A stretch of 32,000 nt of DNA from the NCBI RefSeq assembly GCF_000008565.1, contig NC_001263.1, forward strand, positions 1,664,676 to 1,696,675, given 5' to 3'. The notes below the pieces were generated by a model that saw only the letters and a program-made list of their open reading frames with translations, ran no database searches and was not told where the DNA came from. A program made the position numbers and the translations under genes. Shown one piece after another: positions 9,741 to 13,600 of the stretch (positions are counted from its first letter, which is position 1; each line of letters begins with the position of its first letter). This DNA is from Deinococcus radiodurans R1 = ATCC 13939 = DSM 20539. GTDB lineage: Bacteria; Deinococcota; Deinococci; Deinococcales; Deinococcaceae.

Positions 9741-10289
9741 ATGAGTGATCCCACCAAACCGATTTCATCCGACCCCGCGCTGTCGCCGCCCGGCCAGGAG
9801 ATGACCGAGGGCGAGCGCCGCGCCCTGGAAATGGTCGAAGCCGCCGAGACGGGCGGGCGCAAGCTCCTCGGCTGGCAGGCCGGCCTGGTCACGACCATCG
9901 CCGTCGCGTGGTGCCTGTTTCAGATGTACGCCGCCTGGAACGGCACGCTGGTGCCGACCACCCTGCGGGCGATTCACCTCGCCTTCGCTTTTGCGCTCGC
10001 CTTTCTGGTCTTTCCCTTCCGCAAGACGCCAGGGCGCCCGCAGGTCGGGATTCCCTGGGGCGACTGGTTACTGGGGCTGCTGGCGACTGGGAGCGCCGCC
10101 TACTTCGTTATCGAGTACGCCAACATCGCCGCCAACGGGGGAATCCGCGACGGGGTGCCCGCCGACTTGTGGGCTGGGAGCGCGCTGGTCGTGATGCTGC
10201 TGCTCGCGGCGTGGCGCACCATCGGGATTGCCATGCCGCTGATTTCCACGGCTTTTATCCTCTTCGCCTTCATGGGCGCCAAGGGACTC
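9741..10289 (+). pseudogene. TRAP transporter fused (DctQ-DctM type) permease, N-terminal fragment (183 codons) cut by ISDra2
   Basis: GAGGA comes before ATG 9741. The frame runs to codon CTC 10287-10289, then continues 22 IS-encoded codons to TGA 10356-10358. Joining 10289 to 12026 restores ..FMGAKGL-IKAIQTPFHGGYTW.. in frame. Confidence 0.9.
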
Positions 10290-10430
10290 TTGAACCTCAC
10301 ACGACTAAAGTCGCGTGATTCTCACTTCGCAGACCATTGCCCGCCGAAGCAGGTCTGACATAGCCTCCATGAGCGTTTAAGGTGTCTGAGATTCCCGCAG
10401 CCACCAACGCTTCACGCCGAATGTTCAGCG
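10274..10430 (-). ncRNA. TnpB guide RNA (omega RNA / right-end RNA): scaffold from the tnpB 3' end plus RE, with a 16-nt guide from flanking DNA; 5' boundary approximate
   Basis: Family knowledge plus hairpins seen by eye on the minus strand. AACGCU 10437-10432 pairs with AGCGUU 10411-10406. CAGACC 10357-10352 pairs with GGUCUG 10335-10330 and encloses CUGC-UUCG-GCGG (10352-10341). RE hairpin at 10317-10298. The scaffold ends ..GUGUGAGGUUCAA at 10290. Guide GAGUCCCUUGGCGCCC = 10289-10274. Confidence 0.7.
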
Positions 10431-11523
10431 CAGCGTTCTCGTCTCGGTCATGGGTTTCCCCACAGTTCGGGCAAGTCCATGTACGGACGGCAAGATTCTT
10501 CACTTCGGGATTCTTGAATCCGCAGTCATGACACAACTGGCTAGATGGAAAGTAGGGGCTGACTTTAGATACCAGTCGCCCGTACCACGCTGCCTTGTAT
10601 TCCAACTGCCGGATGAACTCACCCCAGCCCGCATCACTGATGCTCAGTGCAAGGCGGCGATTTTTCCGCATGTTGTCGGGTTTAAGGTGTTCGGTTCCGA
10701 TGATTTCGTACTCACGCACCAGGGAGGTGGTGAGCTTGTGAAGGAAATCCTGACGCTTATTGACAATGCGCTTGTGAATCCGAGCCAGCTTGGTTTTCGC
10801 TTTCCCGTAACGTGCGCTGCCCTTCTTCCGTCTGGACAGGGTTTGCTGAGCTTTACGAAGTCTTTTCAGGGTGGAGCGGTAATATTTCGGATTCTGTTCA
10901 TGCTTAAACCTCACGCCATCGGTCACGATGGCAAAATCCTTGATGCCGACATCCACACCCGCTGCAAACTTGGGAGCCGCAGGCAGGTAGGGAATCTCGA
11001 CTTCACAGAGAACGGACGCTTCGTAATGGCCTTCGTGAATACGGCGCACAGTGACATTCAGAATCTTCCCTTGAATATCCTGCTGGCCCTTGGTTTTCAC
11101 CCATCCCAGCTTAGGAAGTTTGAGCCTACCTTCCCCAATTTGGATGTTGTTGTTGGTGAATTGAGTCCGGTAGGACTCTCCCGTGCGCTTCTTTCTGAAA
11201 CGTGGGAATCCTACCTTTTTACCGGACTGCTTCACAGTCCGAAAGAAGTTCTTGTACGCGGTCTCAAGGTTTTTCAGCGAGTTCTGCAAAGCAAACTTAT
11301 CTACTTCCGAGAGCCAGGAGGTTTCTTCAGCCTGCTTCAGAAGGGTCAGTTCGCTACTCGTTTGCCCGTAGGTCAGTCCCTTCCCGCTTTCCTTGTAGGC
11401 CGCAATGCGACGGGCAAGGAAGTGGTTGTAGACGAACCTTGCGCTACCCAGCGTGCGGTTAATCAGTTCAGTCTGAGCCGCATTTGGGTACAGCCTGACC
11501 ACGAAAGCCTTATTCCTTATCAT
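10297..11523 (-). CDS. tnpB: TnpB, RNA-guided DNA endonuclease (RuvC-like, Cas12 ancestor class)
   Basis: 408 aa. RuvC D191 (GVDVGIKD), E278 (IIGTEHL), D361 ([10 protein letters not shown]). Zinc finger CHDCG..CPNCG. The start overlaps the tnpA stop by 14 nt. Confidence 0.97.
10298..10317 (-). other. RE subterminal imperfect hairpin (TnpA recognition structure)
   Basis: The minus strand reads CACGCGACT-TT-AGTCGTGTG, with one mismatched pair. It is followed by AGGTTCAA up to the element end. Confidence 0.8.
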
Positions 11524-11932
11524 GCTGGCTCTCTATGTATTTCTGAATCTGAGCGCGGGTGTTTTCAGAAACAGTCAGGATGCAATACGACGGGTTCCAG
11601 AGATTGCCGCCCCACAGCTTTTCTTTCAACTGCGGGTAGGCCACGAACATCCGACGTGCGGAAGCGCCTTTCAGCGCCTTCACGAAGTCGGGGATGGCTT
11701 GCTGTGGGGTTGCGCTTAGCAGGAGGTGAACGTGGTCAGGCATGACTTCCATCGTGATGACTTCCAGCCCGTTCTGAGCGGCAATGTCACGCAGGATGTC
11801 TTTCAGTCCATCAGCAACCTCACCCACCAACACCTGATGACGGTATTTCACGCACCAGATGAGGTGGTATTCAAGCTGATAGACGTAACCCCGGCCTTTC
11901 TTCATCTCAAGGGGAAGAATAACATATGTCAT
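11510..11932 (-). CDS. tnpA: TnpA, IS200/IS605-family Y1 (HUH) single-strand DNA transposase
   Basis: 140 aa. HUH motif DHVHLLL (H67/H69). Catalytic Tyr132 in QKYIESQ. Confidence 0.97.
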
Positions 11933-11961
11933 CTGGAAAAGCTAGAGGCTTCCGCTTTTCA

Positions 11962-11979
11962 TCGCCCTTTTCAGGGCGA
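11962..11979 (-). other. second LE hairpin, perfect 7-bp stem with a GAAA loop
   Basis: The minus strand reads TCGCCCT-GAAA-AGGGCGA (11979-11962). It lies between the TnpA-type hairpin and the tnpA start. Function unknown. Confidence 0.5.
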
Positions 11980-11989
11980 GAGGGGCTAA

Positions 11990-12009
11990 CTCATGACTGA
12001 AGTCACGAG
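11990..12009 (-). other. LE subterminal imperfect hairpin (TnpA recognition structure)
   Basis: The minus strand reads CTCGTGACT-TC-AGTCATGAG. It has the same GACT-NN-AGTC core and the same mismatch position as the RE hairpin. Confidence 0.8.
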
Positions 12010-12025
12010 TGTGCGCCCCTCAAGC

Positions 12026-13600
<1,575 letters not shown>

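Follow-up and report, generated by a model that had tools for sequence, protein, structure and literature searches.

ISDra2 interrupts a TRAP permease gene

We analyzed a 32,000-nucleotide stretch of the Deinococcus radiodurans R1 genome (NC_001263.1, positions 1,664,676 to 1,696,675), referred to here as the window, and all coordinates are those of the window. A scripted string check delimited an interval of 1736 bp on the minus strand (10290-12025) between a TTGAT motif and the right flank. The published length of ISDra2 is also 1736 bp (Pasternak 2010). The interval contains two genes, both on the minus strand. The first, tnpA (11510..11932), encodes a 140-aa Y1/HUH single-strand transposase that matched PF01797 (E = 2.3e-43) and, over its full length, the ISDra2 TnpA in PDB 2XM3 (E = 7e-94). 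The second, tnpB (10297..11523), overlaps tnpA by 14 nt and encodes a 408-aa RNA-guided RuvC nuclease. We found that TnpB contains PF12323, PF01385, and PF07282 (HTH, OrfB_IS605/RuvC, and zinc-ribbon TNB) and that it is 100% identical across 408 aa to the ISDra2 TnpB of PDB 8BF8, 8EX9, and 8EXA. Based on its length, the identity of its proteins, and the natural empty sites described below, we assigned the interval to ISDra2, an insertion sequence of the IS200/IS605 family. Judged by its sequence, the element is ISDra2 itself at the reference locus and not a relative.

The element splits a plus-strand gene for a TRAP transporter fused 4TM/12TM permease. The 3' part (12026..13600) carries the DctM domain (PF06808, E = 2.8e-72). 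The 5' part (9741..10289) was identified through the homologues of the restored protein; the 230-aa ORF of this N-terminal fragment had no Pfam match. When we excised the element in silico, the two flanking ORFs fused in frame into a single TRAP permease ORF. A database search found that the restored permease is 100% identical to an uninterrupted 707-aa protein (P0001) and that it shares 94% identity with its D. wulumuqiensis orthologues. On the occupied locus, a putative 535-aa ORF (11993-13600, plus strand) starts at an ATG (11993) inside the left end of the insertion sequence. The insertion sequence encodes roughly the first 11 of its residues, after which the ORF enters the permease frame at ...IKAIQ, and it is annotated as a protein in genomes.

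Exact copies of ISDra2 were gathered by exact-protein look-up, and relatives from other Deinococcus genomes were gathered by a scan of species-representative genomes. That scan returned relatives with a TnpB identity of 85% or lower, and D. radiodurans itself was not among its matches. The complete genome CP150840.1 (13939K-type) carries the copy at the TRAP site and one further ISDra2 in a pilT-type ATPase gene. Strain ATCC 13939K has been described as having a single functional copy, DR_1652-DR_1651, and a strain-specific pilT insertion (Jeong et al. 2024). DR1651-DR1652 was named ISDra2F and was the sole active copy of the strain studied (Pasternak et al. 2010). Because the pair of copies in CP150840.1 matches that description, the copy in the window is most likely ISDra2F. 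This assignment is also supported by the guide of the window copy, which is the native guide used by Karvelis et al. (2021). The CP150840.1 copy lies on the minus strand at ~1.675 of 2.65 Mb, a placement that fits the known lagging-strand-template bias only if the record starts at the origin. We also used GC skew to ask whether the active strand is on the lagging-strand template; plus-strand values in the window ranged from -0.02 to -0.04 over the first 16 kb (1-16 kb) and were near 0 or positive further along, a signal too weak to decide.

TTGAT adjoins the hairpin-bearing left end

According to the original prediction, TTGAT (12030-12026) abuts the left end (LE), and guide-identical DNA, GAGTCCCTTGGCGCCC (10289-10274), abuts the right end (RE), both on the minus strand. 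Both placements were exact by the scripted string check. TTGAT (12026..12030) is host DNA adjoining LE, where it encodes codons L-I-K of the TRAP permease on the plus strand. It is both the target and cleavage motif of TnpA and the TAM of TnpB. We found 30 occurrences of TTGAT on both strands of the window, or about 5e-4 per position, and because the motif is this infrequent, its position at LE is not a matter of chance. In all exact ISDra2 copies, TTGAT lies directly 5' of LE and the DNA 3' of RE differs. Both independent D. radiodurans sites that we recovered, in the TRAP permease gene and the pilT-type ATPase gene, have TTGAT exactly at LE.

LE itself (approximately 11946..12025, minus strand) was recognized by DNA folding and conservation. 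It forms nested hairpins (GGGGC...GCCCC and ACTCGTGAC-TTCA-GTCATGAGT) plus a further hairpin, TCGCCC-TGAAAA-GGGCGA. The fold has an energy of -22.7 kcal/mol (z = -5.05), and none of 200 shuffles folded equally well (0/200). An alignment showed that the LE core is kept across 10 elements. As in other members of the IS200/IS605 family, both ends bear subterminal imperfect palindromes in place of terminal inverted repeats. Just outside the conserved LE core of related Deinococcus elements, the left-end alignment has TTGAT in two of eight elements and TTGAC in six of the eight. These alignments suggest TTGAY as the TAM throughout the Deinococcus clade. The relatives (L005-L012 and L021) encode TnpB proteins 55-85% identical to that of ISDra2; the spacing between motif and core varies among them by a few bases, and their boundaries are putative.

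The right end encodes the ωRNA scaffold, and the flank supplies the guide

RE conservation ends exactly after TTCAA (10290..10294, minus strand), the transposon-encoded motif (TEM) at the right-end cleavage site, and beyond this motif each copy in the 12-element alignment runs into unrelated DNA. The 3'-terminal 5 nt of the element are TTCAA in 11 of the 12 elements and TTCAG in the other. TTCAA differs from the TAM TTGAT at positions 3 and 5. String checking further showed that, at the occupied site, the guide match is preceded by the 7 nt GGTTCAA and not by TTGAT, as the original prediction had held. Upstream of the TEM lies the right-end subterminal hairpin, TCACGCGAC-TTTA-GTCGTGTGA (10297..10318, minus strand), with 9 bp in the DNA fold. 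This hairpin is recognized as DNA by TnpA and is also the 3' stem of the ωRNA. Compensatory changes in relatives uphold its pairing: an A-U pair becomes C-G in four, and a C-G pair becomes U-A in two.

Transcription of the ωRNA at the tnpB 3' end and RE, with a guide drawn from the flanking DNA, has been published (Karvelis et al. 2021, PMC8612924). We found that the ωRNA numbering of Nakagawa et al. 2023 fits the window: -231G is 10520, -117T is 10406, and -116G is 10405, -6G to -2A fall within GGTTCAA, and the C at 10274 corresponds to guide nucleotide 16. Because the window matches this cryo-EM numbering, we take the mature ωRNA (also called reRNA) to consist of a 116-nt scaffold (10290..10405, minus strand; -116G to -1A) followed by the guide at 10289-10274. 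A longer form of 231 nt starts at 10520. The scaffold is also supported by covariation, in that 17 of 57 predicted pairs, some of them in the terminal hairpin, remain paired among the 12 elements despite changes in both partners. A search of Rfam with the ωRNA gave no family match at gathering or E-value thresholds.

Only 7 nt separate the tnpB stop codon from the element end (10290-10299, minus strand), which places the RE hairpin and the greater part of the ωRNA scaffold within the tnpB coding sequence. The TEM also takes part in the RNA, since the ωRNA pseudoknot uses -5U to -3C (Nakagawa et al. 2023). The overlap of tnpB with the ωRNA and the role of the TEM as a pseudoknot strand were previously described in structural papers.

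The right flank (10274..10289, minus strand) is the 16-nt template of the ωRNA guide and, after excision, the protospacer. It is identical to the target in the published plasmids pGB72 and pGB73. We found no second match to the 16-mer with 3 or fewer mismatches in the window. Since the guide is transcribed from that very flank, its match is an identity by construction, and chance was rejected as an account of it.

Excision creates a TAM-protospacer joint that exists as a natural empty allele

Deletion of 10290-12025 in silico yields ...GGCCTTGAT|GAGTCCCTTGGCGCCCATG..., in which TTGAT directly precedes the guide-matching DNA. The original prediction held that excision would produce this arrangement, and we found the product verbatim in three public assemblies. 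In these Logan assemblies (SRR12022996, SRR12023067, and SRR12023124; L001-L003), the site is empty and scarless. A 1200-bp segment across the in silico joint is present verbatim in all three, and the DNA coding for P0001 contains the joint GGGCGCCAAGGGACTCATCAA without ISDra2 ends. Between the empty loci and the excised window there were 0 mismatches over 5.8-7.4 kb. Given these verbatim empty loci, the predicted joint of TAM and protospacer is a natural empty allele, and the element inserted without a target-site duplication. Scarless excision and insertion 3' of TTGAT without duplication are the behavior of ISDra2 and the IS200/IS605 family.

The site is occupied in another Logan assembly, SRR12022987 (L028). 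Thus, occupied and empty alleles are found in closely numbered public runs, with flanks identical to the window. The empty alleles could represent loss of the reference copy, or they could come from lines that never carried a copy.

At the orthologous site in D. wulumuqiensis (L004:2049-2053), the sequence is ATTAA and not ATCAA, which reads TTAAT on the element strand, and the 16-nt target differs at 3 positions. Because of these differences, the D. wulumuqiensis site has neither the TnpA target motif nor the TnpB target.

We also observed a chimeric copy in GCA_965136095.1 (CBCRWM010000001.1; L025:1-6227). Over its left flank and element it matches window 14023-10289 at 100% identity, and the DNA past RE (GTTTTGTGCCTCGTCG...) belongs to an SNF2-family gene and not to the TRAP gene. 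Two ISDra2 copies may have recombined, or the assembly may have been joined through the repeat. Excision of this copy would still give TTGAT and its own guide match.

The joint of this locus is a published TnpB target

We found that the 21-base sequence in the target plasmid pGB72, TTGATGAGTCCCTTGGCGCCC, is identical to the joint of this locus; it is listed in Supplementary Table 3 together with the TAM-less control pGB73, AACTAGAGTCCCTTGGCGCCC (Karvelis et al. 2021, PMC8612924). The oligonucleotides in Table 4 of that study extend to ...CCCATG, the same as the window. Cutting of pGB72 by TnpB, both in vitro and in E. coli, depended on the TAM. The target and D191 were likewise needed, the cuts fell 15-21 bp from the TAM, and selection from a 7N library enriched TTGAT alone (Karvelis et al. 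2021, PMC8612924). The activity of DraTnpB on the native ISDra2 donor joint was later confirmed again (Meers et al. 2023). The original prediction had proposed cleavage of a TTGAT-guide joint as an experiment; because pGB72 is the joint of this locus, that result is already published.

Excision has also been documented. ISDra2 excision is scarless and is induced ~10-fold by gamma rays or UV, and the donor joint has been sequenced (Pasternak 2010); the original prediction had mentioned radiation-induced transposition of ISDra2.

These observations bear on whether the arrangement is a mere by-product of geometry. According to such an account, TTGAT would be no more than the TnpA insertion site and the guide no more than read-through, the joint would have no selected role, and TnpB would be a regulator of transposition. 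Consistently with this, TnpB is dispensable for both excision and insertion of ISDra2 (Pasternak 2010), and Karvelis et al. cite an earlier report of an inhibitory effect of TnpB. In contrast, the TAM specificity of TnpB coincides with the TnpA target motif, the nuclease cuts exactly this joint, retention has been demonstrated in related elements, and the Deinococcus relatives have kept both the TAM-like motif and the right-end boundary. We consider a by-product highly improbable.

The occupied junction is expected to be immune

We concluded that immunity of the occupied TTCAA junction as double-stranded DNA is supported indirectly. Position 3 (G) of the TAM is read by K76 and position 5 (T) by Y52 and S56, and the K76A and Y52A substitutions abolish cleavage. 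TTCAA differs from TTGAT at these very positions, and TTGAT was the only motif enriched from the 7N library, both of which argue for immunity. We found no direct assay of GGTTCAA plus guide in the literature, where the junction is implicit only in the 7N library.

Immunity is not absolute in principle, because TnpB also cleaves matching DNA in single-stranded form, for which it needs no TAM (Karvelis et al. 2021, PMC8612924). We infer that this activity has little weight here, since excision exposes the guide-identical strand and not the complementary strand.

Homing is the probable fate of the cut joint

Taken together, these data point to a homing cycle. A resident ISDra2 copy is inserted 3' of TTGAT within the TRAP permease gene. 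TnpA excises the top strand (the minus strand of the window) as a single-stranded circle, and the flanks are resealed without a scar, which places TTGAT directly beside the guide-matching flank. The ωRNA transcript runs from the tnpB 3' end through RE into the flank, so that its last ~16 nt are flank sequence. The TnpB-ωRNA complex therefore recognizes the resealed joint as TAM plus protospacer and cuts it at the published distance from the TAM, and the occupied site, with TTCAA in the TAM position, would go unrecognized. Repair of the break from an occupied copy, on a sister chromatid or on another genome copy of this polyploid host, would reinstall the element.

That the resident ISDra2 is reinstalled after the joint is cut is, in our judgment, very probably correct. 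A homing model of this kind was proposed for ISDra2 itself (Karvelis et al. 2021, PMC8612924): directed by the right-end RNA, TnpB would cleave the donor joint flanked by TTGAT, and the element would be restored from the sister copy. The original prediction had advanced the same logic, which fits this model and the published cleavage of the joint; it cited Meers et al. 2023 in support, and the primary source for ISDra2 is Karvelis et al. 2021. The homing interpretation is thus supported and was already known, with this locus as the substrate of the published model.

An alternative is that TnpB acts by elimination. TnpB would cut the empty joint, the cut chromosome copy or the cell would be lost, and empty alleles would be purged with no copying back of the element. 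The sequence anatomy would be the same under elimination and reinstallation. In favor of elimination, an unrepaired double-strand break kills the cell, and what interference assays record is target loss. D. radiodurans is polyploid and could afford to lose one cut copy; it is also exceptionally proficient in recombinational repair, which speaks against simple loss. In Geobacillus IS elements assayed in E. coli, retention was greater with TnpB and was attributed to sister-chromosome recombination, which also argues against elimination (Meers et al. 2023). We regard elimination as improbable and favor reinstallation by homing.

We found no experiment in the literature on TnpB-dependent retention of ISDra2 in D. 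radiodurans, and homing and retention in the native host are what we infer from the evidence above. That TnpB is dispensable there for excision and insertion (Pasternak 2010) also counts against the model. The empty alleles bear on how efficient homing would be. They coexist with occupied alleles on identical flanks, and if they are losses, homing is not fully efficient. A stronger reading is that the runs are near-isogenic laboratory lines of the ATCC 13939 type, whose strains have this copy as their sole functional ISDra2, in which case the empty alleles would be scarless losses that were fixed in a polyploid host despite an intact TnpB, and homing would be leaky or conditional. We put this forward only tentatively and think it rather unlikely. 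If true, leaky or conditional native homing could be quantified from existing data.

The mechanism explains the persistence of non-replicative IS200/IS605 elements and lies at the evolutionary root of Cas12. The homing logic obtained here re-derives the published model on its founding substrate and adds nothing new to the mechanism. Its value is that of a positive control, in which the boundaries, TAM, guide, and logic were recovered from the sequence alone.

Comparison with known systems

The closest known system is ISDra2 (IS8301) in its copy ISDra2F, with an identical 1736 bp, TnpA, TnpB, LE, RE, ωRNA, and TTGAT TAM. The native 16-nt guide of ISDra2F is the same as the target chosen by Karvelis et al. 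2021, and we found no difference between the window copy and ISDra2F.

The ISGst elements of Geobacillus stearothermophilus resemble ISDra2 in that the TAM adjoins LE, the RE flank provides the guide, TnpB or IscB targets the donor joint, and the TEM departs from the TAM at positions 3 and 5 (Meers et al. 2023). Unlike ISDra2, they have TTTAT or TTCAT as the TAM, other proteins, and another host, and it is in ISGst and not in ISDra2 that retention was measured.

IS608 of Helicobacter pylori shares with ISDra2 a peel-and-paste Y1 transposition, subterminal hairpins, and insertion 3' of a short motif without duplication. It differs in its motif, TTAC, and in its nuclease, as HpyTnpB was inactive in donor-joint interference assays.

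The homing endonucleases of group I introns, like the TnpB of ISDra2, cut the allele that lacks the element. Insertion splits the recognition site and so makes the occupied allele immune, and repair copies the element in. In these endonucleases, recognition by the protein is fixed to one site, whereas the RNA guide of ISDra2 is reprogrammed at each insertion.
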